DNA of 63,794 bases, filler included, from Collodictyon triciliatum (lineage: Eukaryota): NCBI GenBank assembly GCA_043381765.1. It is 6 parts of 6 records of this genome, joined end to end, with 100 filler letters (N's around TTAATTAATTAA, not from the genome) between each part and the next. Parts side by side here need not be neighbours in the genome. Positions count along the whole stretch, not along the records: positions 1 to 12,448 come from JBHJMP010002163.1; 5 more parts are not named here. One strand, written 5' to 3'. The notes beneath the pieces are model-generated. The model saw nothing but the letters and a program-made list of their open reading frames with translations. It ran no database searches and had not been told where the DNA came from. Below are positions 1-60,686 of the stretch, one piece after another. Positions within the stretch are counted from its first letter, which is position 1, and every line of letters begins with the position of its first letter. The translations under genes were made by a program, and so were the position numbers.

Positions 1-3000
1 AAATGAAAAGAGAGCTGGTATTTTCATTATGGAGAATATGGTGGAGCTCCAGTCGACATCGAAGTTCGCCAGATATGACAAAACTTGAAAATGAGATGCA
101 AGTGTTTTTAGTATCTGTATTTTTGCCGTCTTTGGTTGTCTTGATTGCTCTATCATGAATAAAACAAACAACAGAGGTACTGCAATGCTGAGGAAAACTA
201 AAAATCCACTCGTTCCTTGGTTGGGGCATTTAGTGCAATAGACACCAGTCTTACCAAAAGCCTTTTCACAAACACTGCATAAAGCTCCGGTATATCCTTC
301 AGCACATGTATTATTCCCTCCATTGCAAGCATCTTCATTTAGGCATTTGTAAGCTTTGTATTCTCCATCCAATGTTGGTGCTTGCCAATACCCAGGTGCA
401 ACACTCGGCTGACTGCTTCCATCACAAACAAAACCTTTTGGACAATCTTTGCATTTATTGGTCTTTGAATCATAATATGTCGACGGAATACACTTGCAAT
501 CTTCAATTGATATTGATGCAGTCATATTTGTGAATGAATTTATTGGGCATTCTTTGCACAATGTCTGTCCATAATTTTCATTGTAAGTGCTAAGTGGGCA
601 TTCATAGCAGTTCTGCTTTTCATACCATCCAGGTTTGCATTCGCAAGTGGAGTTTCTGAGTTCAAATCCAGTACTACAGATACAATCGGTTGAATTCACC
701 GAGCCATTATTTTTTGTGGTAAATTTATCACCGCATGAAAGGCAGAAATTTGTGTCGCGTGTTGACTTGTATGAACCTATTCTGCACGGAACGCATTTAT
801 TTCCATCCTCGAATTGTCCTGGAGGGCACGTGCAAGCACCATTGAATGATATATATGAATGCAAGCACGTGCAATTATGGATTGATTCAGAGCCTTTTGT
901 GGTTGTTGTTGAGCGAGTAGGACATGAATTGCAAGAAGAGCTTCTCTCTGAGCTGTAGCTACCTTTTGGACATGAAATGCACGACGATTGATCAAATAAG
1001 CCGGTTTTGTCGTTGAATGTGCCAGATGGACACGATGTGCATGACGCTTGACCATACCTATCATTCCAAGTGCCTTGTGGACATTCAACGCATGACGAGC
1101 TTCCATATGATCCGGAGTTGGAGTTGAATGTGCCTTTTGGACAAGCATAACATGATTTTGAGTCTTTTATTATTTCTTCTTTTTGAAAGTATCCTGATGA
1201 GCATAAGCTGCATGATGCGCTTCTTTCTGAGCTGTAGCTTCCATTTGGACATTCAATGCATGATATTTGGCTGAATGAACCAGTTTTGTTGTTGAATGTA
1301 CCAGGTGGACACGGTGTGCATGATGCTTGACCATCCTTATCATTATTCCAAGTGCCTTGTGGGCATTCAATACATGATGAGTTGCCATATGAGCCTGAGT
1401 TTGAGTTGAATGTGCCTTTTGGACAAGCATAACATGATTTTGAGTCTTTTATTATTTCTTCTTTTTGATAGAATCCTGATGAGCATAAGCTGCATGATGA
1501 GCTTCTTTCTAAACTGTATCTTCCATTCGGACATGAAATGCATTGCGATTGATTGAATGAGCCAGTTTTATTGTTGAATGTACCGGCTGGACACGGTGTG
1601 CATGATGCTTGACCATACCTATCATTCCAAGTGCCTTGGGCACATTCAATGCATGATGTATTGCCATATGAGCCGGAGTTGGAGTTGAATGTGCCTTTTG
1701 GACAAGCATAACATGAGTTTGGGTCTTTTATTATTTCTTCTTTTTGATAGAATCCAGATGAGCATAAACTGCATGATGCGCTTCTCTCTGAGCTGTAGCT
1801 TCCATTCGGACATGAGATACATGATGATTCATAAATTGAGCCAGTTTTATTGTTGAATGTACCAGCTTGACATGATGTGCAAGATGCTTGACCATCTCTA
1901 TCGTTCCAAGTACCTTGTGGACATTCAATACATGATGTGTTTCCATATGAGCCAGAGTTTGAGTTGAATGTGCCTTTTAGACAAGTGTAGCATGATTCTG
2001 AGTCTTTTTTGATTCCTTCTTTTTGATAGAATCCTGGTAAGCACAAACTGCATGATGAACTTCTCTCTGAGCTGTAACTTCCATATATACATTTAATGCA
2101 GGACAATTGATTGAATGAGCCAGTTTTATTGTTGAATGTACCAGCTGGACATGATGTGCATGATGCCTGACCATCCTTATCATTCCAAGTACCTTGTGGA
2201 CATTCAATACATGATTTGTTTCCATATGAGCCGGAGTTTGAGTTGAATGTGCCTTTTGGACAAGCATAACATGATTTTGAGTCTTTTGTGATGTTTTCTT
2301 TTTGATAGAATCCTGATAAGCATAAGCTACATGATGTGCTTCCGATTAAGCTATAGCATCCATTTGTACATTTAATGCATGAAAATTGATTGAATGAGCC
2401 AGTTTTATTGTTGAATGTGCCAGATGGACACGATGTGCATGAAGCTTGTCCATCTCTACCATTCCAAGTGCCTTGTGGACATTCAATACATGACTTGTTT
2501 CCATATGAGCCGGAGTTTGAGTTGAATGTGCCTTTTGGACATGCATAACATGATTCTGAATCTTTTGTGATTCCTTCTTTTTGAAAGTATCCTGATAAGC
2601 ATAAGCTGCATGATGAACTTCTTTCTGAACTGTAGCCTCCATTTGGACATGTAATGCATGATGATTCATCAAACGAGCCAGTTTTATTGTTGAATGTACC
2701 AGCTGGACATGATGTGCATGATGCTTGACCATCTTTATCATTCCAGGTACCTTGTGGACATTCAATACATGATTTGTTTCCATATGAGCCGGAGTATGAG
2801 TTGAATGTGCCTTTTGGACAAGCATTACATGATATTAAATCTTTTATAACTCCTTCTTTTTGATAGAATCCTGATAAGCATAAGCTGCATGATGAGCTCC
2901 TATCTGAGCTATAGCTTCCATTTGTACATTTAATGCATGAAAATTGATTGAATGAGCCAGTTTTATTGTTGAATGTGCCAGATGGACACGGTGTGCATGA

Positions 3001-6000
3001 CGCTTGACCATCTCTACCATTCCAAGTGCCTTGTGGACATTCAATACATGATGAGTTGCCATATGAGCCTGAGTTTGAGTTGAATGTGCCTTTTGGACAT
3101 GAATGACATGATTTTGAGTCTTTTATGATTCCTTCTTTTTGAAAGTATCCTGATGAGCACAAACTGCATGATGCACTCCCAGATAAGCTGTAGCTTCCAT
3201 TCGGACATGAGATACATGATGATTCATAAATTGAACCAGTGTTGTTGTTGAATGTACCAGCTGGGCATGATGTGCATGATGTTTGTCCATCTCTATCATT
3301 CCAAGTACCTTGTGGACATTCAATGCATGACCAGTTGGCATATGCACCGGAGTTTGAGTTGAATGTGCCTTGTAGACAAGCATAGCATGAGTTTGAGTCT
3401 TTATTGATACCTTCTTTTTGATAGAAACCTGATGAACATAAGCTGCATGATGAGCTTCTAACTGAGCTGTAGCTTCCGTTTGGACATGAAATGCATGATG
3501 ATTGATTGAATGAGCCAGTTTTATTGTTGAATGTCCCAGCTGGACATGATGTGCATGATGATTGAACATCTCTATCACTCCAAGTACCTTGTGGACATTC
3601 AATGCATGATTTGTTTCCATATGAGCCGGAGTTCGAGTTGAATGTGCCTTTTGGACAAGCATAACATGAGTTTGAGTCTTTTGTGATTCCTTCTTTTTGA
3701 TAAAATCCTGATGGACATAAGCTGCATGATGCGCTTCTTTCTGAGCTGTAGCTTCCATTCGGACATGAAATACATGACGATTCATTAAATGAGCCTGTTT
3801 TGTCGTTGAATGTTCCAGCTGGGCATGATATGCATTCTTCTCTTTGTTTATTACCATAACTACCCTTGGGACATTTAAAGCATGAAGAATTTGAATTTGA
3901 ACCAAATTTTGGGTTATATGTTCCGTCAGTACAATTAGTGCATTCAGTCTGACCTAAATATGGATTGTAAGAACCAGATGGACAAAGTTCACAAGTCGAT
4001 TCCCCTGATTTAGACGAAAATTTTCCTCTTTCACATAGTTTACAATCGCTAATACTCGCAGATGTGACATTTAAATTATAATAACCAGCAGGACATTTCT
4101 CGCAAAAGGTTGCTTTCGTAGAGTTTGAGTAAGTTCCTGGTTGGCATGGTAATGGAGCAGATGCCCCTTTTTCTGACACGTAAAATCCAGGTTTACTTTC
4201 TTGGCATCTCGATTGACCTTCAACTCCGTTGTAAGTGCCAGGCTCACATCGAACACATGAAGAATTTGAAGTTGCCATGAAGTCCACTCCATAAGTTCCT
4301 GTTGGACACATAGAGCACGATTCCAAACCAAATTTATCGCCATAAGAACCTGCGAAGCATTTGAGGCAAGAATTGTAAAGAGAACTAGACCTCTTGCTCG
4401 GGTTATATGTTCCAGGGACACAACTTCTACAAAAGGATTGTCCTGAAAAAGGATTGAATGTACCGATATCGCACGGTTGACATTCAGAATCACTAATTGA
4501 GCGATCATGGGAGTTGTAAGTGCCTGAGGGACAACTGATACATGAACTCTGGTCATTTAGATTATAATATGTTCCCTCTGGACATGACTTGCAATTATTT
4601 GAGAGCCAATCTAAATAAAATCCTAATTTACAAATATTCCATATTTTTATCGTCGTATCCCAGCTTCCACTTCCAGATACAATTTTTGAGCCATCAGGAG
4701 TAATAGTAACACTTGTAACAGTATCGGTATGACCATTCAATGTGTGAATCAAACTTCCATCAGGAAGATTCCAAATTTTGACGGTTTTATCACCACTTCC
4801 AGAAACAATTTTCGAACCATCAGGGGCAACAGAGACATCTGTTACATAATTGGAGTGACCAATCAATATGCGAATCAAACCTCCGTCAGAAATAGTCCAT
4901 ATTCTTATTGTATTATCATAACTTCCAGAGACAATTTTTGTACCATCAGGAGTAACAGAAACACAAGTAAGACGACTGGTATGACCAGTCAATGTGCGAA
5001 TCAAACTTCCATCGGAAAGATTCCAAATTTTGACTGTTTTATCACCACTTCCAGAAACAATTTTTGAACCATCAGGAGTAACAGCAACACTGTAAACTCC
5101 ATCAGTATGGCTAGTAAGAGTGCGAATCAAACTTCCATCAGAAAGATTCCAGATTCTGATTGTTCTGTCAGCACTTCCAGAAACAATTTTTGAACCATCA
5201 GGGGTAGTAGCAACACTGTAAACTCCATCAGTATGGCTAGTAAGAGTGCGAATCAAAGCTCCATCAGAAAGCTTCCATATTTTGACTGTTCTGTCAGCAC
5301 TTCCTGATATAATTTTTGAACCATCAGGAGTAGCAACAACACTGTTAACACCAGTATGACCAGTCAATGTGCGAATCGGGGCTCCATCAGAAAAATTCCA
5401 AATTCTAATAGTGCTATCTGGACCACCTCCAGCTCCTGATATTATTGTTACACCATCAGGAGTAGCGGCAACACTGCCAATCCAATCAGTATGGCCAGTC
5501 AATGTGCGAATTGAATTACCATCATAAATATTCCAAATTTTGATTGTACTGTCAGAACTTCCTGAAACAATTTTTGAGCCATCAGGAGTGACAGTAACAC
5601 AGTAAACATCGCTAGTATGACCAGTTAATATGCGAATAATTGCTCCATTAGAAAGTTTCGAAATTTTGATATCGTCGCTTCCAGAAACAATTTTTGAGCC
5701 ATCAGGAGTGACAGTAACACCGTAAATAGTACCAGTAAAGTCACGGCCTGCCAACGTGCGAATCAGAGCTCCATCAGAAAAATTCCAGATTTTGACTGTT
5801 TTATCGCCACTTCCAGAAACAATTTTTGAGCCATCAGGAGAAACAACAACACTATTAACATTACTAGTATGACCAGTCAATGTGCGAATCAAAAATCCAT
5901 CAGAAAGATTCCAGATTTTGACTGTTTTATCGCCACTTCCAGAAACAATATTTGAACTATCCGGGGTAACAGCAACACTGTTAATACCATCAGTGTGACC

Positions 6001-7191
6001 AGTCAATGTGCGAATCAGAGCTCCATCAGAAAGATTCCAAAATTTGACTGTTTTATCGCCACTTCCAGAGACAATTTTTGAGCCATCAGGAGTAACAGCA
6101 ACACTGTTAACACTATCAGTATGACCAAACAATGTGCTAATCAATCCCTTCTCGAAAATATTCCAGATTTTGATTGTTGCATCAGCACTTCCAGAAACAA
6201 TTTTTAAACCATCAGGAGTAACAGAAACACTACGAACCTCACTAATATGACCAGCCAATGTGCGAATAAAAGCCCCATCAGAAAGATTCCAAATTTTGAC
6301 TGTTTTGTCATCACTTCCAGAAACAATTTTTGAGCCATCAGGAGTAACAGCAACACTGTTAACACCATCAGTATGTTCAGTTAATGTACGAATCAGAGCT
6401 CCATCAGGAAAATTCCAAATTTTGATCATTTTATCGCCACTTCCAGAAACAATTTTTGTACCATCAGGAGTAACAGCAACACTGTTAACATTATTAGTAT
6501 GTCCAGTTAATGTGCGAATCAAAGCCCCATCAGGAAAATTCCAAATTCTGACTGTTTTATCATAGCTTCCAGAAACAATTTTTGTACCATCAGGAGTAAA
6601 AGCAACACTGTTAACAGCACTGATATGTCCAGTTAATGTGCGAATCAGAGCTCCATCAGAAAGATTCCATATTTTGATTGTTTTGTCATCACTTCCTGAA
6701 AGAATTTCTGAGCCATTAGGAGTAACTTCAACGCTGTTAACGACACTAGTATGACCAGTCAATGTGCTAATCAGAGCTCCATCAGAAAGATTCCAGATTT
6801 TTATTGTTCTGTCTTCACTTCCAGAAACGATTTTTGAACCATCCGGAGTAATAGCAACACTGCGAACATCACCGTTGTGACCAGTCAATGTGCGAATCAA
6901 AGCTCCATCAGAAAGATTCCATATTTTGATCGTATTATCACCACTTCCAGAAACAATTTTTGAGCCATCAGGAGTAACGACAACATCATGAGGACCAACA
7001 GTATGACCGCCTATGGTGTAAACTTGGTTTTCTTGTCCTTCGACTTGAAAAAATTGGAAGCAGATTATCAATCCTAAAAATATGAATTCATTTAAATTTC
7101 TGTAAAAATTCGATATAAAAATAGGATTAATTTCATAAATCAACGCACCAAAAATCCAAAAGGGTGCACGAGATTTATAATTCAACCTCAT
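1..7191 (-). CDS. Giant surface-receptor-like protein: probable signal peptide + ~19 WD40 repeats + Cys-rich (GCC2/GCC3, Ephrin_rec_like-type) tandem stalk + multi-TM module; 3'-partial
   Basis: ATG at 7191 (MRLNYKSRAPFWIFG...). The segments translated by hand share one frame down to base 1; the ORF track lacks it, consistent with no stop inside the window. WD40 units such as GHTDTVTSVTITPDGSKIVSGSGSWDTTIKIW run straight into CKSCPEGTY/CPAGTFNNKTGS repeats, then CAEGYTGALCSVC, a hydrophobic helix (GFLVFLSIAVPLLFVLFMI) and KIQILKTLASHFQVLSYLANFDVDW. Confidence 0.9.
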   Translation of the reverse strand, partial: MRLNYKSRAPFWIFGALIYEINPIFISNFYRNLNEFIFLGLIICFQFFQVEGQENQVYTIGGHTVGPHDVVVTPDGSKIVSGSGDNTIKIWNLSDGALIRTLTGHNGDVRSVAITPDGSKIVSGSEDRTIKIWNLSDGALISTLTGHTSVVNSVEVTPNGSEILSGSDDKTIKIWNLSDGALIRTLTGHISAVNSVAFTPDGTKIVSGSYDKTVRIWNFPDGALIRTLTGHTNNVNSVAVTPDGTKIVSGSGDKMIKIWNFPDGALIRTLTEHTDGVNSVAVTPDGSKIVSGSDDKTVKIWNLSDGAFIRTLAGHISEVRSVSVTPDGLKIVSGSADATIKIWNIFEKGLISTLFGHTDSVNSVAVTPDGSKIVSGSGDKTVKFWNLSDGALIRTLTGHTDGINSVAVTPDSSNIVSGSGDKTVKIWNLSDGFLIRTLTGHTSNVNSVVVSPDGSKIVSGSGDKTVKIWNFSDGALIRTLAGRDFTGTIYGVTVTPDGSKIVSGSDDIKISKLSNGAIIRILTGHTSDVYCVTVTPDGSKIVSGSSDSTIKIWNIYDGNSIRTLTGHTDWIGSVAATPDGVTIISGAGGGPDSTIRIWNFSDGAPIRTLTGHTGVNSVVATPDGSKIISGSADRTVKIWKLSDGALIRTLTSHTDGVYSVATTPDGSKIVSGSADRTIRIWNLSDGSLIRTLTSHTDGVYSVAVTPDGSKIVSGSGDKTVKIWNLSDGSLIRTLTGHTSRLTCVSVTPDGTKIVSGSYDNTIRIWTISDGGLIRILIGHSNYVTDVSVAPDGSKIVSGSGDKTVKIWNLPDGSLIHTLNGHTDTVTSVTITPDGSKIVSGSGSWDTTIKIWNICKLGFYLDWLSNNCKSCPEGTYYNLNDQSSCISCPSGTYNSHDRSISDSECQPCDIGTFNPFSGQSFCRSCVPGTYNPSKRSSSLYNSCLKCFAGSYGDKFGLESCSMCPTGTYGVDFMATSNSSCVRCEPGTYNGVEGQSRCQESKPGFYVSEKGASAPLPCQPGTYSNSTKATFCEKCPAGYYNLNVTSASISDCKLCERGKFSSKSGESTCELCPSGSYNPYLGQTECTNCTDGTYNPKFGSNSNSSCFKCPKGSYGNKQREECISCPAGTFNDKTGSFNESSCISCPNGSYSSERSASCSLCPSGFYQKEGITKDSNSCYACPKGTFNSNSGSYGNKSCIECPQGTWSDRDVQSSCTSCPAGTFNNKTGSFNQSSCISCPNGSYSSVRSSSCSLCSSGFYQKEGINKDSNSCYACLQGTFNSNSGAYANWSCIECPQGTWNDRDGQTSCTSCPAGTFNNNTGSIYESSCISCPNGSYSLSGSASCSLCSSGYFQKEGIIKDSKSCHSCPKGTFNSNSGSYGNSSCIECPQGTWNGRDGQASCTPCPSGTFNNKTGSFNQFSCIKCTNGSYSSDRSSSCSLCLSGFYQKEGVIKDLISCNACPKGTFNSYSGSYGNKSCIECPQGTWNDKDGQASCTSCPAGTFNNKTGSFDESSCITCPNGGYSSERSSSCSLCLSGYFQKEGITKDSESCYACPKGTFNSNSGSYGNKSCIECPQGTWNGRDGQASCTSCPSGTFNNKTGSFNQFSCIKCTNGCYSLIGSTSCSLCLSGFYQKENITKDSKSCYACPKGTFNSNSGSYGNKSCIECPQGTWNDKDGQASCTSCPAGTFNNKTGSFNQLSCIKCIYGSYSSERSSSCSLCLPGFYQKEGIKKDSESCYTCLKGTFNSNSGSYGNTSCIECPQGTWNDRDGQASCTSCQAGTFNNKTGSIYESSCISCPNGSYSSERSASCSLCSSGFYQKEEIIKDPNSCYACPKGTFNSNSGSYGNTSCIECAQGTWNDRYGQASCTPCPAGTFNNKTGSFNQSQCISCPNGRYSLERSSSCSLCSSGFYQKEEIIKDSKSCYACPKGTFNSNSGSYGNSSCIECPQGTWNNDKDGQASCTPCPPGTFNNKTGSFSQISCIECPNGSYSSERSASCSLCSSGYFQKEEIIKDSKSCYACPKGTFNSNSGSYGSSSCVECPQGTWNDRYGQASCTSCPSGTFNDKTGLFDQSSCISCPKGSYSSERSSSCNSCPTRSTTTTKGSESIHNCTCLHSYISFNGACTCPPGQFEDGNKCVPCRIGSYKSTRDTNFCLSCGDKFTTKNNGSVNSTDCICSTGFELRNSTCECKPGWYEKQNCYECPLSTYNENYGQTLCKECPINSFTNMTASISIEDCKCIPSTYYDSKTNKCKDCPKGFVCDGSSQPSVAPGYWQAPTLDGEYKAYKCLNEDACNGGNNTCAEGYTGALCSVCEKAFGKTGVYCTKCPNQGTSGFLVFLSIAVPLLFVLFMIEQSRQPKTAKIQILKTLASHFQVLSYLANFDVDWSSTIFSIMKIPALFSF
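915..3830 (-). repeat. Coding tandem repeat, ~279 bp (93 aa) x ~10, Cys-rich stalk
   Basis: acaagcataacatga-like anchor recurs near 1141, 1423, 1702, 1981, 2260, 2539, 2818, 3097, 3376 and 3655; each unit has several CxxCPxGT/SY motifs. Confidence 0.92.
4640..7010 (-). repeat. Coding WD40 array, ~126 bp (42 aa) x ~19, high internal conservation
   Basis: ccagaaacaatttttgagccatcaggag recurs about every 126 bp; translated consensus LxGHTxxVxSVAVTPDGSKIVSGSxDxTVKIWNLSDG. Confidence 0.93.
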
Positions 7192-9090
7192 TCTACATAT
7201 AATGTGAATTTTGTTAAAAGAATATACCGGAGTCATTAAAAAGGCATGCCTTATATTTAATTTCGATATCATGTTACTTTTCTAATATTAATCTAATCAC
7301 ACATAATATTTGTTTAATTTATCACTATAATTACTTATATTCATTAAATTTTCGCAAAATTACTATTCAAGTATGTAATAATAAAAAGAATGGCTAAAAT
7401 CCACGTATTTAGTTGAAATGGTATTTATGACTTTGTAATTTTTCTTATACAAGAATAATTTGTTTTTGTTTTTGGATAAATTTTGTCCCTCAAACTCTCA
7501 AAGATTCAATTATAATGATCGTATATTTTGATTCAAAATAATTATCACAACGTAAACGTAAATTAGGGAGATATTATCATGCTGCTGTATTCTTATAAAT
7601 GGTAATTTATTAAATACTTATAATGATGGGTACAGTACGTATGTTTATTTATTCGTATGCGATTATTTAATTAAATTTTATAAAATAAATTAATTATAGA
7701 TTTTAAGATATATTCAAACTTAATCTAATTCATTTCATAAAAATAAAAAGTAAAAATTGGTAATGCAATTAGTAATTATACAAATTATGATTTTAATTTT
7801 ACATTGTGTTCAATATTTTCTATTGGACCTTCAACCTTATTTTTGTAAATTCATCTATATAATATAATAAATAGACCATAATTTATTAACACAATCGAGA
7901 TAATCACTAGGCGGATATAGTTTTTAGCACAATAATATTTAAGTGTACTATTAAAATACATAATATCATTTCGAAAATCAATTGAATCATCTACTTAATA
8001 TGATTGAAATAAATATTTTCAAAAATTTATGATGTAATAAACATATTAAGTTTATAATTTTTTAAGGAGCGGGAAAATAAATTTATTGATCATAGTTTAC
8101 CAGATGAATATCATGAAAATGATTTGAGATTTGTAAGATAATATGGTGACGGATAAGCTCTTAGTATTTGTAGATTTTTAGATTATTCCTAAACTATAGA
8201 AGCCCTCTCATAAGTAGTCAGTAGAAACTGTTTTTTCATAATAATTTACCAACAGATTATAGCATTAGAGCGAAAATTAAATAATATATTTCATATGAAT
8301 TAACGGCAAGCACCTATATAAATCATCATCAATATAATAGATAATATTGATCATGTAAAAGGGATAAAATTATATTTAATATAATGAAAGAGAAGCATCT
8401 ACCAGATAAAATAAAATGAAAATTAAATTTATAAACCAGAAATTTGCTTTTTTTTCATGGCATTTACTCAAATATTTATATGTAAATATACGGTAGATTA
8501 TTTTATTTTTAATATCTTTTGAATCATGCATTCAGACTAAAAAGTGAAAAAAACAAAATTTTAAAAAAATTATGTAATTAAATATATAATTGATCAGAAG
8601 TGAAATCATGAATATAGTTTTATAAGTTTTTCGAACATGTTGTTAACAATAAACATTTCAATACATAAAATCAGACATGATTTAATGTTTGAAATAGTTT
8701 TTCATGAATTTTTATTATAAAAAATTCAGCTTTTAACATAATCTTTATGTATAAGTTATTTATTGAAATTTACAGTTGTAAGACTAATTTATGCATAATA
8801 TACACTTCAAGAGGTAGTTCTTTACATTAAATTATATCATCATAATCGTAAATATCATCTAAAATATTTAATTAATAAAATTTAATTAAAATTTTGAAAA
8901 GATGAAATTAATCCATTACAAATCGATTTAGTGCACTAAAATTCGTAAATAGGAATATAATAAAATGAAATAGTTTAAATATCTTATTGAAGATAAATGG
9001 TCCCTTAACAAATATTTGATTCTTCTTAGGAATAAATGAAGTCATCAATTCAATATAATTGATTATGTTACAAGTTTAATCTGTAAATTA

Positions 9091-9191
9091 TCCGCCACCC
9101 GACCACCAATTAGCGTTCATGCAATAGATGACTTGCGAATCAAAGCCAATATCTCCACCATCCTGCAAAAATTGAAAGGAAGAATAAAAAA
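9091..9191 (+). mobile_element. 5'-truncated non-LTR retroelement 3' end with A-rich tail
   Basis: Clear diverged copy of 11577-11681 (tccgccaccc...caccatcctgca...aattgaaaggaagaataaaaaa). Confidence 0.7.
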
Positions 9192-11284
9192 GAATAATAA
9201 ATAAATTAAATAAAATTATTAATATATTTTAAACAGAAAATAAATTGGAATTTTACTAGATTATCGGATTCACTCTAGCATTTAAATGACTGCGAATGAG
9301 ATGCATTGTTAATTTAATTTTTGATATGATCAAATTACGAGTTATTTATAATCAATTTTTTCGACAATTTATTATCATATCACAATATAAAATCATTCTA
9401 AAAACATATTATAATATCGTTAAACAAAAAACTTAATTTTCTTTAATCTCTAACAATTCTGGATATTTTATCGTAATTAATTATTTTAGATAGTAATAGT
9501 TATCATTTTATATTAAAATAGTCAAATTTTAATCTTTTGGTTCGAATAACTGAAATACATTCAAATTTGTGATTATGAGATTATTTTAAATATATTGAAA
9601 ATTTTTTTGGTTTCTTTTCAACAGTTTAGAATTATATTGAAACTTATTCAAACAACGTGACAAAAAACTTGAGAACAAAAATCGGTGCAAATGAAGACCT
9701 TTTTGAGTCAAATTTCAGCGAAATTCAAAATAAAAATTGAGTTTTGAATCTATTATAATAGGCATTAATAAAATGTTTCAATAACATTGTATACTAAATG
9801 AAATGAAGAAGAAAAGGAAAGTTCCTAATAACTATAAATATTTATTTTTTTCGTTTTAATATTTCAATTAAATCATAGTAAAGTCTATCTTTCTAAACAA
9901 GAACACATTCACTTTTGAGTAAATGTGTTTATGCAGTTATATAATATTTGATGGTCATGTTTTTACATAAATAACAGCATATTCTACAAATTTAATCTGG
10001 GCCATTACCTTTGAATTTTAATGACTGAGAATAGAAAATTTCGAGCGATAAGCTATTAATATCTATGCTAAAATTTGGTGATTTTTTGAAAAAATAACCC
10101 AATATTTGAAAATTAAGTAAAAATAAAACAATCTATTTTAATTTCAGTGCAGAGTTTATCATTTGAAAAAACCAAAAATTTCCAATAAATAATATAATAA
10201 AATATTAAATAAGTAATACATATACATATATATCAATTGTTGATAACATACTAACCTCATGAATGAGCATTTTATATTAATAATATCTCTCATATACTTA
10301 GAATTTGAGGAGAATAAAGTGTTTTATTGGGTAATATGACTTAATTTACTATAAATATAGTGGTATTAATAAAAAATCAAATAGATTCAAAATAGAAGAT
10401 CAATTTTTTACATATCGATCCTCGACACGACATCTTATTTTCACTTAGAAAGTCAATATGACAGTCAGTAGGGCACTAATCGGAGTCATACTCTATGTTA
10501 ATGTATAAAATTATTACATGTCTCTAATATTGAATGCATTGTAATTTGGTAACTACATATTTTGATGTTATAATGATTTCAGCAATTCCAAGAAATTAAG
10601 GAATAGAGAAACGAATAGAAAAGAAAACAGACCAACATGGTCGATAGAAAAGAAAAACTAATTATTGTAAAACCAATAGAGGTCAAATGTTGGATGTAAG
10701 AATAAAAATTGAAAAAAAATGTCTAGATGATTCTTCACAATTCAGGCAGCTGAACAATCAGGGCTCTGATACCCACCCAACTCCTGAAAATCGCTAAAAA
10801 CTACTTAAAATCACGAATTGATTACCATTGGCAAATAGTATGGTGATATAATAACAATCCAGTGCGAGCTCCTATGATGAAGCAAGGTTGAGGAATATTG
10901 ATAAATCGAAGCAGAATTAGTATTATCCTGCAATGAGCAAAAAGTGGGATGAAACATGGCATTGACGATCCCAAAGCACTTAGCTAGCAATTATACTGAT
11001 AGACAAGCACCCTGCACCAAGCATATAATACTGGATAAGTGAATTTTTTTTTTATTAAATATGCAGATGCATAAGTGTTTTAAAATCTATGAAAATTGGT
11101 CGATACCATCCTGACTCAAGAGTTTTGCAAGTTATAATAAATGGAGTAAAATAGTACAATGACGATTCATGGAGTAGGCAATATCTATTAGCTAATGTAA
11201 GCATTTCAGTCATAATCACTTTTTATATTTTGGGAAGCTCTATCATTTCCAAGTGTTTTGTGTGATATTTCAAATTAAAAATAG

Positions 11285-24561: not shown

Positions 24562-25298
24562 CCGAAAGTCTTTGTTTTACTTTTTCTTTTAGAAAACTAC
24601 CGAGTTTTCAATTTTAATAAAACTTGAGTTAATCAATCAATTTAACAATAAATATAAAAAACTGCATAAAATCAATTTATGTAAAATTAAGCATATACCG
24701 AAACCCCTTTGGTTTTGCACAAAAACCACACGCCATGACAACTAAGCCTCACTATGACGACGAAAGTGCGGCCTACAAGCACTAAAGAACGTGACCGGTG
24801 GAGTGAGCAGCGGGACTGCAGGAGAAGGGACTCTACCCGGCCGGCTGTGTGGTGCGCCTTGTGGGCGTTTACACTGAAACACTGAGACGCACGCCACACG
24901 CCTGCGCTTGTTGGAGCAGCTGTGCGAAGTCCACCGCACCCGCGAGTGCGCCACGGAGGGCGTTGTGCTGCTGGCATCCGACCTGTCGAGCNNNNNNNNN
25001 NNNNNNNNNNNNNNNNNNNNNNNNNNNNNNNNNNNTTAATTAATTAANNNNNNNNNNNNNNNNNNNNNNNNNNNNNNNNNNNNNNNNNNNNTTCTCTTTT
25101 TTTTTTTTTCTTTTTTTTTTTCTTTTTTTCTCTTTTTTTTTCTCTTTTTTTTTCTCTTTTTTTCTCTTTTTTTCTCTTTTTTTTTTTTACACTTTTCTCT
25201 TACCCTCCGCACAGCACCCCGAGGTAGGCTCCCGCACACGAACACACACACACACTCACACACACATAGCGAGAGAGACCCTTCCCCGTCTGTCGATC

Positions 25299-27189
25299 AT
25301 GTGGCAGCGAACGAGCACACACGGGACGTCTCCAACAGCGCGGTGTGCTCACGCAGCAGTGATCTGCACCAACCTCTACGTCTTTGGAGGATGGAACGGT
25401 TCGATAATGCTGGACGATCTGCACGTCTTTCAGATCGGTTTGGACTTTCTCACTCGTTGCTCCTTATTTACAGAATTATTAGAATAGTTTCATGTCTCTT
25501 TTACTGGGGTTTTTACTGGGTTTTTTTTACTGGGTTTTTAAACTGGGGTTCTCCTTAAAATCTACAGATACAAAGACGTGGTCGAAGCCGATATTCACTG
25601 GAACAGCGCCCCAATGCCGAGCAGGACACAGTGCCACAGTTTGCGGCCATTTGATATATGTCTTCGGAGGTGGCGATGGAAGTGTGTTCCTGAACGACAT
25701 GCATGTGCTTGACACAGGTTTAGCCAATGACCAACTGACTCTCGTGTAGAACTCTTTAATTAAATGCACCCTCATATTGTTTGAAATGCTCATTAATATA
25801 TTTGTGTATGCACATTCATGCGTTATTTATGTATTGATTATTGGTTTTATTTGGTTTTATTTGGTTTTATTTGGTTTTATTTGGTTTTATTTGGTTTTAT
25901 TTGGTTTTATTTGGTTTTATTTGGTTTTATTTGGTTTTATTTGGTTTTATTTGGTTTTATTGGATTTTATTTGGTTTTATTTGGTTTTATTTGGTTTTAT
26001 TTGGTTTTATTGGATTTTTTTTCGTTCGTCATTAACCAGAGACGCTCTCATGGAGTCAGGCATATGTGGTACTGGTCAATTTCAATTTCAGACATTCGAG
26101 CCATCCGCATAAATGTCCACAATCCTTTTTAATCTATGAATTATGATGCATCGTCCTCATTCTTGGGTCAAGTCTGGAACTCCTCCTGCTGCTCGGTCGC
26201 GTCACTCTGCAACACTTATTTCTGGAAATCGAATCCTGATATTTGGAGGAGGAGATGAACGCCGTGTCTACGATGATATTTACTGCCTCGATATAGGTCA
26301 TATGATTTTCAATTACCTCATGTGCTGGAACAATATATGAAAATCGCACACGAATCATGCATATGCATATTGATGAAAGTACCGAAATAGTCCTGAATCA
26401 TTGATACTGTCATCTGCTGTATATATCAAAGCTTAATCAAACGCTGTCTATATTGTATAGCTACCATGTCTTGGTCCAGACTACGAACCAACGGAACCCC
26501 GCCAGCTCGTAACATATTATTTCAAAAAGAAGGATTATTGTATCCTGGGTTTGCTTTTGATATTCTGTATGCATATTCTTACTGTTTATTTTTATAGCAC
26601 GTTGGGCGCACACAGCATCTTTAGTAGGAGAGAAACTATTCATATTCGGGGGTCGTGATGGAGATCGGCTGTACGATGATTTGCACGTTTTAGATATAGG
26701 TCTTTCTCTCTATGATTCATTTACAATTTATATATTCTATATGGCTGAAAATTGGAAATGAACGCCAGTGTATGATGATACTCTGCATGTGTACTCGCGC
26801 CTTGTTCTCACTATGAAGAAACTCAGAATCCATGGCTTGGTCTCAGCCACAAACCTCCGGCCTACCACCGATAGCGCGGGCTGCCCATACATGCTCCATC
26901 ATCGGTACCATTCAACATCTATATATTGTGTTTGTAATATGTGCTGTTAGAATTTTTGTGTATCAACTTGTATATAAATGGGCGAACTCTGTGAATACAG
27001 CGACTGTGCCGTTTCTTATTGTTTTTATTCTCGTCAATACAGGAAATTGCCTGTATTTCTTTGGTGGAGGAGATGGAAATCGAATGTTGAATGAAATTGT
27101 GGTATATAATACTGGTATTCTTTCTTATAATGGAATTATGAATATTTAGACTCCTTTCTCTGTTTTTTTTTAGAATAGAATGAATCCTT

Positions 27190-27288
<99 letters not shown>

Positions 27289-28919
27289 TGTTTTGTTTCA
27301 GCCCTTTTCGTCAAATATCATGTTATGTAGTTTTATATCGGTTCCACCTATTTTAGATAACCTCACATGGACACGCCCAAATATCACAGGCACTTCTCCA
27401 ACATCTCGATGTGCTCATAGGTATATTCATTCGCTACTCCCAAAGTTTAGCTTGTTTGTACAAGTGACCCTTTTTCATCATTTTCTTTGCACTATTAGCG
27501 CATCAGCAACTGGAAGCCGGATTATTGTTTTCGGTGGCAGTGACGGGAACAGGCGATTCAAGGATATCTATATTCTGAATACTGGTGACCTTTATTATCC
27601 CATAATTTTATTATTATAGAAAAAAGAAAAAAACGTTTGAGTTCGTGTCTCATTTTTGAGAAATGAATTGCGCAACAAGCTGCCAGTAAGTAATCATCCT
27701 TTTCATTTTAAAATAGAGCATCTTGGAAAACACAAAGAGGAGCCTTCAAAGGAAGACAATAGAAAGGTTTTACAAAAAAAAAACCCCATATCTTACTCTT
27801 GTTAATGTTTCTTATTAGAAAAAACTGTACTTATCAATTGATTTATTCATTTAATCTTGTAATTGAAATAGACACCAAGTGTTCGGGCAATTAAAGGCTA
27901 CGGCGCTGCTTCAGATTCTGCTGATAAACAAATGACCTCTGTTTACGAATCCCAGCCTGTCCAAAACGAAGTCCACAACCAAATTGCAAGCACACTGATG
28001 AAATCGCCTCTGACAGAAATCCCCACAGCGAACCCAACCCCTGATGAAATTCCATCAAACGAGACTATACATGACATTCGCCCGACGAGTCCCTTAGTAG
28101 CAAACACACCGCCGCGTTTGTCTCTATACAACTGTTCTTTTTAAAAAAAATAAAAGGAATTAAAAATCATGAAATTAATGGCTTTTCGGTTCTTTTCTGT
28201 ATGCGGAAAAGTTTATGATAAAAAAAAAAAAGAAAGGCATGGAAAATAACTGTGCAAATTACATTATTTTCGGTGTAGAAAACCTGCCAAGGAGGTCGTC
28301 GTACGCTCACATCACTGGAGAACTTTCGATGGATATTCGGGGTTGGCTTCAGCTTCATAACATGGCAAAGTATACAGATTTATTTCTCCGGGAAGAGATT
28401 GATATGGTCATTCTGCCGCATATCACGGAACAAGACCTTGAAAAGATTGGTGTGGATGCATTGGTCTGTTGTTTTCGTGATGAATTTTCTTTCTTGCTAT
28501 CTCGCCTACAATTTATTATTTATTTATTTTTTAGCTCTTTGTCTAGTCTCTTTTTAATTAGCTTTTTTAAAATTTTATTCCTCACTGTATTTTTTTATTA
28601 TTATTTTGTGGTTATTTTATGTTCAAAATTAAAATTATGCGACTGATTGAAAACTCATTTTATAAATGCAATAACTCAATATGTATCCACATAGGGGGCA
28701 AGAAAGAGAATGATGCTCGCCATTACGCAATTGAAATTGTCTCAGAATTCTGCTCATTACTCAGTTCTCTCCACACAAATGAAGCTGGAAGCACACTCTA
28801 GTCGCCCCAGTATGACTCTCTTTTATGCTCTCACCTATGCACGAATCAAACAATCGAAGGGAAAACAATCGGAACAATATAGGACAAACATAATCCCAAC
28901 CAAGAATTATATCTTATGA
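25299..28919 (+). CDS. Kelch beta-propeller + C-terminal SAM domain protein (spliced)
   Basis: Repeated PxxRxxHxA...Y/IFGG motifs across GT-AG exons; SAM-like DIRGWLQLHNMAKYTDLFLREEIDMVILPHITEQDLEKIGVDAL|GARKRMMLAI. Exact stop uncertain. Confidence 0.88.
25840..26010. repeat. Intronic (TTGGTTTTAT)n minisatellite
   Basis: Direct reading; lies within a Kelch-gene intron. Confidence 0.95.
27190..27290. repeat. Intronic (GTT)n microsatellite
   Basis: Direct reading. Confidence 0.95.
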
Positions 28920-29468
28920 GTTCTTTTCGACAAGCGCTGTTTTCATCATCGCAAAAGACTGACTTTTTTTTTTTTTTTACCACAGCCTCGCCGAACAACG
29001 CCCTATTGTTACAAAAGATAGGTACATGCAAATAACAATTAATTGAATAATATAGTTGTCATAAGGGATTTAAAAAAAGTTTAATTCTTTTTTTATTTTA
29101 TTACAAAGTGATAGAAAAAAGAACAAGATAATCTGACAAACTGTTTGTAGCACTTGACTTGCAACAACTTGTCGTGGATATAAGCAAACTCAACCAATAA
29201 AACAAAGTCGGACTTTTTGGAGATGTGATGTTGCAGTGATTCTTGTCTGCAAAAAACCACGCAGACAGCGAAGCTTCGTCTGTGATATCATAACAGATTG
29301 CCCAAATCAGAGGAAGGGAAGAGAAAGAAAAGTAAGGAAAAGAGAACAAAGAGCAGAGGGAAAACAATAACATATTGATTAACAAAGAAGGGAATGTCAA
29401 GAAAGCATGCAAGTCTTGGATGAATTATGTTTTGTTTTTGTTTTTTTACTTTTTTTTTTTTTTTTGAC

Positions 29469-29562
<94 letters not shown>

Positions 29563-55900: not shown

Positions 55901-58900
55901 AAGCTTTCTATGGAGAGCATTCGATTTCACTACTTTTGATTTTATTAAAGTGTGGGCAACGTTGAACACATGGAATCTGTGTGGATTTGGTGGATTGATT
56001 TTAGATAGAACAGAATTTGTGGCATCAAGGAGTCCCATCGTTCTCTTTTCATTCTCAGAATTCTGTGAAGGTTCTTGTATTTCTACAATCGAGGCATTGA
56101 TATCGTCCTTGATGTATTCAGCTGCAAAGAATTCGTAGAGAGATTTATGAAAGAACTCATAAGTTGTGGCACTTGATTTTTTAATAGGAGCACATCTCAG
56201 CACGAAAATAGAATAGGACGGCTCTCCATCTTCGAGTTTGTGATCGGGATTAGCGTTGAAAAATTTTGCGTAGGCAGGGTTCTTTGACAATTTTCCCTCA
56301 ATTGTTTCGTATTCCAAGGCGGGTATACCAATTTGGCACATGGTCTGAGCTATATCTTTACATTTATTCCAGAGTAATGTTTGTAAATCTTGAGGCATTC
56401 GTTGTTTCAAGGATAGTGTTGACTCGAGTTTTTTCCTTTCACGTTCGAACCATGTCCTTGAAAACTTATCTAGAAAATCCGTTCTCATCATCTTTGCATC
56501 GTCCTTGGATTTTTTAGAGTCTCCACGTTCCCTGCAAATTGATGGAAGTGTAGTGGCTGCCATAAAAATCATGAATGGAGTGATGGCCAATTCTTCAAGC
56601 TCTTTGATTTTTTTAAGCTCTTCCTCGTATCTTTTTCCATCCTCCCATCCTTCCACAGGATTTATTTTTGCAAAATTAATAAAGTAGTCGAGTCTTTGTC
56701 TTGGTTCAAATGATGTAAGGTATATTTCATCCAAAGAATAGCCTTCTTCGCTTTTTGGTGCAAACAATGATTGATATCGATTTTTTCTATCCAAAAACTG
56801 TTTACGAAATCCAATCACAAATTTGCAGTTGGGCCACTCTTGTAATTTGTTTGAATGATAGAATGACGTACTTCTGTCCTCAATTTCATCGAAGCCATCT
56901 AAAAAGAATATAAATTGCTTATCTTTGAGCTCTTTAATTTGTTCTTTACGGAAATCAGAGTCTGATATATAGAGACTATTTTTGCTTTCTGACAAGAGTA
57001 ATTCTTTAATAACTTTCTCCCTTGGATTCTTGAGTGATGTCAGAGGGACATACAAAGGAATGTATCCCTTTCCATATTCATATTTTTCCCACAACAATCG
57101 GGTGATGTATTGTTGCAAGAGAGATTTTCCAGAGCCGGAATCTCCCAGCACAAGTAAAACCTTAGCTTGTGAAGCTTCGATGAATTTGAGTATGTATTCT
57201 TGGGCGTCAAATGATCTACCTCTCTCCAGAATCCTTTCTGCTCGACCTGGGATGTATGTAAGGAATCGACTGTTAAACTCTCTGTTTCGTATGGTCTCTT
57301 CTTTAATGTTTTCCAGTATATCTTTAATAGTCCTTTCATCTCTCCCCGCTTTTTCAAAAAGAATTGTGGGTAAATATAGATTTTCTGGAACAAAAGAACA
57401 TAACTTGCTCTTTTGTTCTTGTACGAATATATCTATTTCATCACTTTTTATCCATTTTTCATGGCTCGTAATGTAATTCAGAAAAGATTCATATTGTTGT
57501 TCAAGGCCTTTTCGAACAAAGCATAGACGATCACATATCGCATCGAGAATCAAAAAGGCAAGATTTTTTTCAATCTTTTCTGTTTTCAGTGAGGCATAGG
57601 CATCCCAAACTTTTTTGGCCTCATCAACACCGGTTGATAAAGAAACACGAAATAATTGGTAAAAGATAAACCAACTCCGTTTTATTTCGATTTCACCAAA
57701 AGAGGTAATTGTTTCTTTTAGAGAGCTCAATGCACCGCCAATATCGAAGGACAATACTGAGGAAGCCACGTTGAATAACCCAAGGCTAACCTTACCAGCA
57801 ATTTTCAGATTTTTTATAACAGGATTCTGACCATCGCTAATGTATTTCAGAAGCTCACAGAATAAATATTTCTTTGCCTGCATGTGCTTTATCTGCACTT
57901 TGGTTTTGATATCTTCACCATGTGTCTCTGTTTTCTTTTCAATCCAACTTTGGCTAAATGCTTCCTTGTAAGCCTTATATTTCTCTTCAGGAATACCAAA
58001 TGCACCAGAAATATACAAAGAGTTTAGGATGGCAATTAAACTGTCTAAAATCTTTTCGCACAGAGCTTCATCAGATGCAAAAAGGGCCCCTACACGATCA
58101 ATTAAAATATTAAGAACCGTGGCTAATAATACATGGTCAAAGTCTTCCTTTAACGTGTTGGACACAACAATTTGAAGGGCATTCAACAAACGCTCTAGTT
58201 TCTCAATTCCTTTCTGAATCTTATCACCAATAGCAGTCACCAGTTTTTCTGATATGAGTTTATCTCCTGCTGGTGCCAAAGCAGTAAGTTCTCTGAGACT
58301 CTCGTCGGTAGTAGTATGCTCCTTCATGAAAAGCTTTATGATTCGAATGGCTCTTTTCTTCTCAATTGTAGCACCTGATTGCTTATCTCTTTGTTGAAAT
58401 ATCGATAAAGCGAGCTGTGAGGCATCGGAAGGCCCTTGTATTATTTGAAAGTTCTGATTTGCATCCATATTAAGAACCGAAACTAATTGATCGAGTGGTA
58501 AGTGGCTGTGCTGATTAGAGGATTTTGGAGGGACTACTGGAGCTAATTCTTTTTTGACATTTGTATTCAAGCGAGCTGAAAGATGCGATGTGTTTGTGAG
58601 TGATCTGTCCACTATAGGAATACTTTTGTTAGTGAGGCCTTGGGTCGATGAATTTTGAGATGGCTGGTTGGTTTCGATTTGCATGGATTCCTGTAAATGC
58701 AAAGAGATAGAGTTTTCATGACTTGATATCGATGTATTATTAGGTAGGATTGTGGAGGGGGCCAAGTAAGCAGAGGCCTGAGGAAGAATCGCACGAAATA
58801 TAGAATCGATTACTTGGCTATTTTGCTCTATTGCTGGCAATCTTGATATTTGGTCAACAAGGCCCTGAATTAATCTTTGTCTTGATTCGTTCAGTTTTTC

Positions 58901-60686
58901 CATGAGTAAATACTGTTTTTCCAAAAGTAGCACTTGTTCACGAAGACTTTCTGTTTGAGCTGCAGATTGTCTCTCAGCGATGATGGCTTGAGTTTTAGCT
59001 ATGTCGGCCTGTTCACGCAGATTCTGTGTTTGAAATTTAGCCTGTCTCTCTGCTAAAGAAGCTTGTTCACGGAGAAAGTCGGTTTGAATGGCAGAATATC
59101 TTTCAACAGTAGAAATATTTAATGTAGCGAATCTTTCAATAAGTTGAATATCATTCTCCTTCGTGGCACTTGCGAGAAGTTGCGATGCCAACACATGGCT
59201 TAATTGTAAGAATATATTCGGGTTATTTGGTTCTGTCGTAGAGGTGGATTTCATCGGTTGGCAAGATTCATTTAGTTTGGAAAGAATATCGAGAATTTCG
59301 GGTGTTGCATCCCCTTTGATTCCTGACTCTTTCTCTGAGGAACCATTTTGTCTTGTGTGTCGTGACCAAGAGTTTCCCCCTCCTCCTCTTGAGGATATAT
59401 GTAATTGATGGTGTCCATTACCACGAAATGTACTTTGTAAAGATTCATAAAACAGTGCGTCATCCTGCAGAACATTTGGGTCGATGTTGGGTGGGACAAT
59501 TAAACCGATGAATGAGCTTTCATTGGGTGCTACAGTTATATAGTTGGCATATGTTAATTTTGGACTTTGAATTCTTTCATTTTTGGAGTCTGAATCATAT
59601 TTTGTTAAAATCTTCCCATGTTAATTAACAAGAATGATGCATATTAAGAGAAAATAATATGTGTAGAAATAAATGGATAGTGCAATTATATTATTTGAAG
59701 AAATATACATTTTTGTGTACTATAGTCTGGAAATGCGACCAAGATATCATCAGTTGTCTGTAGATTACATATCGTCAGCTAATTATACCACATGTTCAAA
59801 AAAAAACATGCGAGAAATCTCACAATATTTGTGTACAATTTTACATGATGGTTTCAATTCTTACAATTGGTCGATGTGATTGTTTGGATAATTTGGTATC
59901 TTTCTCCTCTTTAGATGGTATATCTTTGGAGAGAAAGTAAGTGGAAAAATTTTAACAACTCGTTAGGATATCAGAATATTAATTAATTCAGAATAAGTTG
60001 GAAAAAATCCTTCTGGTGTTATCTATTCCGAATGATAAAATAGTGATACCTTGGTGAATCAATCGAGGAAGTGATGTATTGTTTTCAAGTGAGACATTTA
60101 GATAATCGATTGTCGGTTTCTTTCGTAATAGTAAAAATAAATAAATGTGAAATTGAATCCATCACATTTATTCAATTATGAGGAGAGAAAAGCTACGTAA
60201 TGTATCGAAAATATACCCAAACCCCCTCAAATTTTTCCAAACTGTTTCCGTTACTTTTTTGAATAATACCTTCTTTTTTTCAAGTCAATGTGACGATAAT
60301 TTAGTATATATGTAATGGATATGGTTGTTCAAGGGTATTTTTGTGCTTTTTTGGAAATAAAGAAAACTTTGTTGGCTGGCTTGGATTGCAGTATCAACAG
60401 AGACAGAATCTTGATAATCGTCAGGATTGGTACTCTTTGACTCATGTAAACTGATTATACAGAGGTTACATGATAAAGGTGAATATATCATTTTTTTTCC
60501 TTTATTCGATTCAAAGAAAGGTGAATATATCATAATTATTTCTTTTGTTCAATGCATCAATTTAAGTTAAATTATCATTTTTTTGCACATACTATGCACT
60601 CGCAAGATGCTCTAGAAGGTTATTTTTATTCATTTCAGTCGGCATGGGGATGTGTGATTCGTCGCGGAATCCACCGTTGGCTTCAT
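52925..60686 (-). CDS. NLR-like STAND protein: helical N-terminus + NACHT + pentapeptide repeats + 13 WD40 + Sel1-like repeats; main exon 52925-~59612 plus upstream exons running into a gap
   Basis: Walker A VLLVLGDSGSGKS, Walker B FIFFLDGFDEI, YEFFHKSLYEFF, AASNAITILNYADVSFSDMDFRGIQIPNADM, 46-aa WD40 units, three ECYENGWGVEKD-type repeats; frame stays open ~120 codons upstream of ATG 59254. Confidence 0.92.
60492..60516 (-). mobile_element. Micro-retroposon-like insertion, copy 6 (probably in an NLR intron)
   Basis: tttttttCCTTTATTCGATTCAAAG between perfect 17-bp direct repeats aaaggtgaatatatcat (60475-60491, 60517-60533). Confidence 0.92.

Follow-up and report, generated by a model that had tools for sequence, protein, structure and literature searches.

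The locus examined here raises the question of whether a WD40 array of the kind found in intracellular STAND and NLR proteins can be carried outside the cell by a membrane receptor. It lies at the low end of a 63,794-nucleotide stretch of Collodictyon triciliatum DNA (assembly GCA_043381765.1), referred to here as the window, where positions 1..7272 of the minus strand form a single stop-free frame of 2424 codons. In order, this frame encodes a hydrophobic leader, 19 WD40 repeats, a Cys-rich stalk of about 1465 residues, a DUF7630-like Cys knot and one transmembrane (TM) helix, and it exits the window at its low end. An initial annotation, made from the sequence alone, had described the gene as a cell-surface receptor; its observation was confirmed and its interpretation was partly supported. 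We give a joint probability of about 0.55 to the reading that the gene is real and nearly intronless, that it codes for a giant membrane protein of the secretory pathway with its N terminus outside (N-out), and that this protein is a ligand- or force-sensing surface receptor in which a glycosylated stalk carries variable WD40 propellers and a membrane module of the Flc/Pkd2 type is coupled to them.

The claim that one frame joins all of these parts was upheld, with 2424 codons free of stops and Ns. Positions 1..7400 contain no N and no stop in the frame of the gene, and the remaining frames across 1..7272 give at most 260 amino acids (aa). By our own arithmetic from a GC content of 39%, the chance of a stop-free run of this length is about 1e-70. 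Upstream of the gene, positions 7300..12448 are AT-rich and all frames there are 99 aa or shorter. The scaffold end lies about 50 residues past the first TM helix (TM1, residues 2356-2374). The window was found to consist of six pieces, joined by spacers at 12449-12548, 24992-25091, 37522-37621, 50058-50157 and 62574-62673, each built of 44 Ns, a 12-base motif with stops in all six frames and another 44 Ns. The first five pieces measure 12448, 12443, 12430, 12436 and 12416 bp, and the sixth, a short one, begins at 62674 and extends to the window end, which suggests that the pieces are size-sorted unplaced scaffolds. Since the piece sizes are nearly equal and slowly falling, it is probably the end of its own scaffold, and not merely the window edge, that truncates the gene. 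A six-frame scan of the whole window with a profile of the membrane module matched only the gene itself, and no piece holds the 3′ remainder; a search for short fragments with the missing 3′ end returned three matches at 28-32% identity, none from the same species.

The WD40 array occupies residues 88-880 (4633..7011, minus strand) and was delimited by Pfam, Tandem Repeats Finder and motif anchoring as 19 repeats of 42 aa each, with repeat 11 degenerate. Pfam WD40 (PF00400) matched 18 stretches (E 7e-202; 645.9 bits against a cut-off of 27), Tandem Repeats Finder reported 18.4 copies of a 126-bp unit at 4667..6985 with 78% matches, and anchoring on the xPDG motif gave 19 units, with 42-residue spacing in 15 of the 18 intervals. 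The number of repeats thus agrees with the initial annotation, which had also called them near-identical; that part did not hold, as identity between repeats at the aa level averages 67% (range 45-88%) and the synonymous divergence (dS) between them is about 0.45. AlphaFold modelled the array with a mean predicted local distance difference test score (pLDDT) of 83.1 and a predicted template modelling score (pTM) of 0.48, as 40 strands, a disordered repeat 11 and 32 further strands (72 in total). The model contains four-stranded blades forming propellers; at this pTM it does not settle how the 19 blades are split into rings. The top Foldseek match of the model was 2YMU (E 8e-59, 43% identity), which is Npun_R6612 of Nostoc, described in PMC5587647 as having 14 repeats in two propellers; Apaf-1 also matched (E 5e-39). 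A whole-protein search listed 120 matches, all of them WD40 arrays at 27-53% identity that covered 21-36% of the query; they were confined to the WD40 third and no match to the architecture was among them. At least 29 of these 120 carry a NACHT domain (PF05729), and HET-E-annotated fungal proteins and many bacterial proteins are included. A Protein Atlas search with the junction region gave only WD40 clusters, with scores of 0.84 or less, and was uninformative.

Variation among the repeats is concentrated just after the GH and SG motifs, as had been claimed. The highest column entropies were found at columns 7, 9, 25 and 30 (3.12, 2.21, 2.14 and 2.10 bits), which flank the conserved V after GH and the invariant D after SGS. 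The proportion of nonsynonymous differences (pN) at these four columns was 0.50, a value reached by 4 of 20000 random four-column sets. The ratio of nonsynonymous to synonymous divergence (dN/dS), obtained from Nei-Gojobori counts between paralogous repeats of one gene, was 0.80 at the four variable columns, compared to 0.44 in the other 38 and 0.19 at the two flanked columns. HNWD codons 7, 9, 25 and 27 are reported to be under diversifying selection in Podospora and to flank the conserved codons 8 and 26 (PMC1805685). After removal of three insertion columns, our variable columns 7, 9, 25 and 30 fall on these same four codons, in a register between the two numberings that is our own matching. 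The HNWD-like design proposed earlier is therefore borne out in its positions, whereas a dN/dS above 1 was not obtained. The variability appears patterned as in NLR sensors and fits relaxed constraint as well as positive selection.

The Cys-rich stalk spans residues 881-2345 (238..4632, minus strand) and was defined by Pfam and by composition. It contains 30 stretches of Ephrin_rec_like (GCC2_GCC3, PF07699; E 4e-198, 641.6 bits against a cut-off of 23.1) in modules of about 48 aa; in this Pfam scan of the gene the best 25 of 53 families were shown. The stalk holds 160 Cys (10.9%) and 39 N-x-S/T sequons, compared to 28.4 expected. Within it, Tandem Repeats Finder detected an array of 279-bp (93-aa) Cys-rich repeats at 930..3835 (minus strand; 10.4 copies, 85% matches), which comprises ten complete repeats and a partial eleventh, in accordance with the roughly ten repeats counted earlier. 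The dN/dS between the 93-aa repeats was 0.24, which argues for selection on the translated product. The last 300 residues of the protein consist of further Ephrin_rec_like modules, the knot, TM1 and about 50 residues more. The knot, CxxGYxGxLCxxC...CxKC, lies just before the membrane helix at 226..348 (minus strand); its CxxGYxGxLCxxC module, reported in the initial annotation, is present at residues ~2309-2349. It matches DUF7630 (PF24633, 45 aa) at the expected site but below the cut-off (22.7 bits against 27, E 1e-4), and its assignment rests on this match together with the conserved columns of the alignment described below. TM1 (151..207, minus strand) has a Kyte-Doolittle 19-residue mean of 2.77 and aligns with the first helix of the family. 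Past it, positions 1..150 (minus strand) encode a conserved stretch of the type K-I-L-x-N-Y-x-Q-V...F-x-x-x-W-P, recognised by phmmer and with its invariant Q present, which is cut by the end of the scaffold and window.

The side of the membrane on which the WD40 array would lie follows from the distribution of hydrophobic segments. By Kyte-Doolittle analysis the protein has only two, a weak leader and the strong segment at 2356-2374, with none between them, and there is no Met-led second leader at the joint between the WD40 array and the stalk. As no TM segment separates the array from the stalk with its 160 Cys, the array should face the compartment that the disulfide-rich stalk faces, be it the cell exterior or a lumen. 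The earlier placement of the array outside the cell thus agrees with the lack of a TM-like segment before the stalk, the topology itself being predicted from sequence. The first WD40 unit starts after just 87 residues, which make up the leader. A first coding exon is proposed at 7149..7191 (minus strand) from reading of the DNA, and would encode the initiator Met, a basic n-region and the first part of the hydrophobic core; its putative ATG start is at 7189-7191, where the initial annotation had placed it, and two more in-frame ATGs lie upstream. The GC content of this exon is 0.35, compared to 0.21 upstream, and three of its first 8 residues are K or R. A putative in-frame intron of 75 nt (GTGCGT...TTTTTAG) is located inside the leader at 7074..7148 (minus strand). 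It has GT..AG ends, a length that is a multiple of 3 and a GC content of 0.20, compared to 0.35-0.39 in the adjoining coding DNA, and its removal leaves a 15-residue hydrophobic core with a Kyte-Doolittle mean of 1.98 and small residues at the expected cleavage positions. If 7074..7148 is an intron, the leader would be a neat signal peptide.

The visible C-terminus belongs to a very large and mostly unannotated family of protist proteins. Residues 2020-2424 matched 85 proteins of 1333-4242 aa, from sources that include Percolomonas, Guillardia, Hanusia, Anaeramoeba, Triparma and Ectocarpus. When the last 134 aa were used in phmmer against 206 collected proteins, seven matched (E 6e-19 to 4e-5) over the knot, TM1 and the following stretch, and these seven each have a leader at the N terminus, a long ectodomain and 6-9 hydrophobic segments near the C terminus. 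P0128, P0158, P0190 and P0145 are among the leader-bearing relatives. A 444-residue query from P0128, which covers the knot and all helices, matched 5591 representative clusters at E<=1e-3 and 1602 at E<=1e-10; the module is nearly always C-terminal, in proteins of up to 7961 aa. An alignment (A1) of 16 rows, including the last 134 residues encoded in the window, has seven invariant columns (five Cys, one Gly and one Gln), all of which are kept in the Collodictyon protein. Among the A1 rows, PF06011 ('TRP') was matched in 7 of 16 and DUF7630 in 6 of 16 (E<=0.01), and some tails of the A1 family contain WW or SH3 domains, as expected for a cytosolic C-terminus.

Pfam analysis of 20 of the 150 best module relatives found PF06011 above its cut-off in four (P0229, P0244, P0262 and P0301) and below it in two others (P0250 and P0291), with DUF7630 above cut-off directly ahead of the helices in P0229 and P0244. 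P0128 and P0210 had no PF06011 match. P0383, a direct match of the C-terminal region of the gene, lists both PF07699 and PF06011. In 107 usable members, a crude topology count gave medians of 7 hydrophobic segments from the start of the module, 1649 residues of ectodomain and 157 residues of tail; an N-terminal leader was counted in 46 of the 107, a lower bound in that many are metagenome gene models with doubtful starts. The family layout is accordingly a signal peptide, a huge variable ectodomain, an Ephrin_rec_like stalk, DUF7630 and a module of about seven helices. The multi-pass membrane module claimed in the initial annotation is supported by this family median, and in the Collodictyon protein everything beyond TM1 would be present by homology; of the TM helices it had listed in the plural, one is clear in the window (2356-2374) and no more than one was found. 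AlphaFold modelled the module of the relative P0210 with pLDDT 79.6 and pTM 0.78. A wide VIA-align search gave a best Z of 8.1, to designed or generic helical bundles, and phmmer of P0262 against PDB sequences returned no match.

The WD40 array is the rare element of the combination. Local profiles run over 357 collected proteins found the module in 171 and WD40 in 123, with both only in the Collodictyon protein and in P0194, a 2554-aa metagenome protein for which the design is found on two contigs. P0194 carries WD40, Ephrin_rec_like, the module (E 1e-22 and 3e-20) and PF13676, which we take to be TIR_2; it has no hydrophobic segment before residue 1638 and its WD40 repeats are not internally repetitive. 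P0194 has the appearance of a transmembrane receptor whose tail is of immune type, and it counts in favour of the receptor reading as a second, independent case. Other propellers occur at the same position among the 85 matches: RCC1 in 10, Kelch-type in 2, FG-GAP/VCBS in 2 and NHL in 1. Among individual relatives, the module is present in P0171, a Rigifila ramosa transcript with RCC1 and TIG; the propeller of P0356 is PQQ-like, and P0158 has DUF7948/SBBP. A propeller on a Cys-rich stalk is thus known, and an NLR-class WD40 array in that place is rare.

Comparison with known systems places the protein between several of them. PF06011 corresponds to the TRP domain of the Flc proteins of fungi, to which PMC9600462 ascribes the control of calcium homeostasis. 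Schizosaccharomyces pombe Pkd2 is described as opening with a signal peptide and an ML-like ectodomain, which are followed by a TRP-like membrane domain and a cytosolic coiled-coil tail (PMC6727746), and as being calcium-permeable upon membrane stretch (PMC9727806). The fungal Flc/Pkd2 family (S. cerevisiae Flc1-3, S. pombe Pkd2 and C. neoformans Flc1) therefore resembles the family found here in its layout of signal peptide, ectodomain, multi-helix membrane domain and cytosolic tail (PMC6727746), and relatives of the C-terminal module match PF06011 above the cut-off. The Flc/Pkd2 ectodomain is a small ML-like domain (PF14558), as far as PMC9600462 describes it, whereas the Collodictyon protein has about 2300 residues of WD40, Ephrin_rec_like and DUF7630-type knot. 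No ML-like domain (PF14558 or PF02221) was found among the best 25 of the 53 Pfam families matched, and residues 88-2345 are otherwise occupied. P0128, the nearest full relative, has no PF06011 match itself, and the part of the Collodictyon protein that would correspond to PF06011 lies off the scaffold.

The closest precedent for the outer part is CRINKLY4 (ACR4/CR4) of plants, in which an extracellular seven-bladed propeller, called WD40, is followed by a TNFR-like Cys-rich domain (CRD), and in which each blade has a disulfide that the authors regard as a possible extracellular adaptation (bioRxiv 10.1101/2020.08.10.245050). As described there, CRINKLY4 has one propeller, with BLIP-II as the top structural match, one CRD of about 90 aa, a single TM segment and a kinase. 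In contrast, the Collodictyon protein has 19 canonical, Cys-free repeats of NLR class, a 1465-aa stalk and, by homology, a multi-pass module; its 793-aa WD40 part contains 2 Cys, its relatives are multi-pass, and no scanned relative carries an adjacent kinase. A lumenal WD40-like domain has also been reported for Giardia GlVps (PMC3423367). The initial annotation had not recognised the architecture as a described one. We found no description of the combination of WD40 array, stalk and module in the open-access literature; the claim was overstated in that an extracellular propeller on a Cys-rich stalk does have precedent, in CRINKLY4 and in the relatives with other propellers.

The WD40 repeats themselves are closest to those of STAND/NLR proteins (Podospora HNWD het-e/het-d and 'highly repetitive' prokaryotic arrays such as that of Nostoc Npun_R6612), which share the 42-aa repeat and its strong internal conservation; the best matches are 43-53% identical to the Collodictyon array. 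The internal identity of 67% is just below the 0.7 cut-off for 'highly repetitive' arrays given in PMC5587647. Unlike HNWD, the Collodictyon protein has no HET or NACHT domain, with 87 residues before the array and Cys-rich modules after it, and the predicted location of the array is outside the cell, whereas STAND/NLR arrays are intracellular. The protist relatives (P0128, P0145, P0171, P0158 from Anaeramoeba, and P0194) share the leader, large ectodomain, Ephrin_rec_like stalk, knot, module of about seven TM helices and tail. P0194 alone of these has WD40 ahead of the stalk; the heads of other relatives differ, being RCC1 with TIG (P0171), PQQ-like (P0356), DUF7948/SBBP (P0158) or others, and no protist relative exceeds about 32% identity to the protein beyond the WD40 part.

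Taken as a receptor, the protein may function as follows. A cleavable signal peptide would direct it to the secretory pathway, where the 19 WD40 blades would form at least two propeller bodies. The stalk, with its roughly 1465 residues of Ephrin_rec_like (TNFR-like) modules, would be rigid, disulfide-rich and glycosylated, and the DUF7630-type knot would lead into TM1 of an Flc/Pkd2 (PF06011 'TRP')-like module of about seven helices, the rest of which, with the cytosolic tail, would be encoded past the scaffold end. The positions that vary between blades, on their top face, may be the binding site for an external ligand, for instance a partner cell, prey, a microbe or a matrix component. Binding, or its pull through the stalk, could shift the state of the membrane module, and the output could be an ion (Ca2+) flux, signalling via the tail, or both. 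Of this picture, the order of the domains, the unbroken frame, the family to which the visible C-terminus belongs and the sites of variation are observed, whereas the topology, the unseen part of the module, the binding of a ligand and the output are predicted.

Several observations bear on how far the receptor reading should be trusted. In its favour are the dN/dS of 0.44 in 38 WD40 columns and of 0.24 in the 93-aa repeats, at a proportion of synonymous differences (pS) of about 0.32. The following weigh against it. The multi-pass module of the gene itself is unseen, since the gene is cut after TM1, and the unspliced leader is weaker, with a mean of 1.46. The word 'channel' is carried over to this branch from the fungal PF06011 members, the 'TRP' name rests on the Pfam family, and Foldseek of the P0210 module against the PDB gave nothing at E<=1e-3, with TRPV1 at E ~1. 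With 2 Cys in 793 aa, the WD40 blades would lack disulfides, whereas each CRINKLY4 blade is disulfide-stabilised. The dN/dS of 0.80 does not exceed 1 and relaxed constraint would account for it equally well. WD40 occurs in 1 of 170 other module-bearing proteins and in none of the 150 best module relatives, and the closest matches reach 53% identity in the WD40 part and 32% elsewhere, with no near orthologue or paralogue found. The WD40 part as a whole shows no enrichment in sequons (11 compared to 8.7 expected). The initial annotation had pointed to many WNLS sequons; W-N-x-S/T is indeed present in 10 of the 19 units, compared to 93 of 2573 equivalent motifs (3.6%) in the 120 best WD40 matches, but the units were copied from one another, so that this counts as about one event, and we dismissed sequon enrichment as weak proof of secretion. 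Finally, GC content at third codon positions (GC3) is 0.21 in the WD40 part and 0.295 in the Cys-rich part, and their relative synonymous codon usage (RSCU) correlates at just 0.31; tandem repeats dominate these counts and distort both comparisons, so that codon usage as a test of chimerism decides neither way.

The difference in GC3 and codon usage would nevertheless be expected if the gene were a young or decaying chimera, in which an NLR-type array was inserted between leader and stalk and whose product is not expressed or cannot fold in the endoplasmic reticulum. The near uniqueness of the WD40 combination (1 in 170), the degenerate repeat 11, which is modelled as disordered, and the short unplaced scaffold, about 12.4 kb long, whose end falls within the gene, agree with such an origin. 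However, the repeats have diverged to a pS of about 0.32-0.34 with the frame kept and with dN/dS of 0.24-0.44, which needs long-term selection on the product; 7.27 kb without a stop and the same design kept elsewhere by P0194, on two contigs, likewise speak against it, and we regard this origin as improbable. That the join was instead made by the assembly, which is fragmented and in which both parts are repetitive, so that a WD40 gene was misjoined to a Cys-rich receptor gene, is more improbable still. The joint is in frame, within the last WD40 unit and free of Ns; there is no separate start or leader for the Cys-rich part, nor an alternative C-terminus for the WD40 part; and the chance that a misjoin would be in frame and stop-free is small.

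If the product is made, its array might still face the cytosol, through inverted topology or an unused leader. Most WD40 domains are found in the cytosol, and the leader has a weak score if left unspliced, but without a TM segment between the array and a stalk with 160 Cys and 39 sequons the whole 2345-residue N-terminal part would have to be cytosolic, contrary to the leader-bearing relatives P0128, P0158, P0190 and P0145; we give this arrangement very little credence. An outward-facing protein could also be a surface adhesion or coat protein, with the WD40 array and stalk serving self-assembly or attachment to other cells or to a substrate and the module serving just as an anchor. A long rigid tandem stalk of ten 93-aa repeats would suit a spacer, ectodomains of adhesion type (TIG, Filamin, beta-helix, F5/8-C and EGF) are found in many relatives, and the module, whose channel function in this branch is extrapolated, matched no solved structure. 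Yet a seven-helix module that occurs in 5591 clusters with cytosolic WW, SH3 and PF13676 tails exceeds the needs of an anchor, and fungal PF06011 proteins are reported to affect calcium (PMC9600462); we consider a purely adhesive role unlikely. The receptor reading is therefore preferred. A broader proposal, which we offer tentatively and consider doubtful, is that some protists moved the variable WD40 sensor of STAND/NLR proteins to the cell surface and wired it to an Flc/Pkd2-type, channel-like module, as may also have happened in P0194 with its PF13676 tail. Under this equally doubtful extension, such proteins could make up a class of transmembrane receptors that lack an NTPase and recognise non-self, prey or mates, their ion or adaptor signal being gated by binding to a hypervariable propeller.

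If the receptor reading is correct, the gene would be a clear example, from a eukaryote, of an internally repetitive WD40 array of canonical type that functions extracellularly, and the STAND-type sensor design of fungal and bacterial immune proteins would be portable between compartments. It would also draw attention to the 5591-cluster family, whose ectodomains reach thousands of residues, which may be a main class of protist surface receptors, and whose module, lacking a solved structure, is assigned by Pfam to the fungal Flc/Pkd2 'TRP' domain in just some of its members. Swappable heads (WD40, RCC1, PQQ-like, TIG and beta-helix) on one module would then provide a testable model of receptor diversification.

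A second WD40 gene was observed on another piece of the window. A long intronless frame at 52925..59254 (minus strand) encodes a 2109-aa, NLR-like STAND protein (P0002), with NACHT (32.7 bits against a cut-off of 26.7), 13 WD40 stretches and C-terminal Sel1 repeats; its WD40 units are about 47 aa with an inserted loop, and a pentapeptide-like stretch was judged by eye. As the window consists of joined scaffolds, genes on separate pieces are not proven neighbours. The WD40 units of P0002 and of the receptor candidate are just 36-37% identical, compared to 43-53% for outside matches, and P0002, on its separate scaffold piece, was rejected as donor of the array.

Minor features were also noted. 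Two short frames upstream of the receptor candidate, at 9040-9204 (+) and 11457-11621 (+), share the peptide pattern SATRP..SVHA.D, which suggests a dispersed repeat or transposon remnant. Other scaffold pieces contain a tRNA-Leu (CAA) at 14461-14544 (+) and a tRNA-Ala (AGC) at 39986-40058 (-). Microsatellites and low-complexity runs (hexamer, trinucleotide and poly-A/T) are present at most scaffold ends, for example at 12549-12830, 25092-25300, 49900-50057 and 50158-50330, where they probably mark assembly break sites; further runs lie at 26919-27317, 29288-29712 and 34744-34880, in intron-rich genes of other pieces. Exon-like frames at 25044-28650 (+) and 30740-31800 (-) show Kelch-, SAM-, RhoGAP- and PH-type patterns by eye and resemble ordinary intron-rich genes, in contrast to the two intronless repeat genes.

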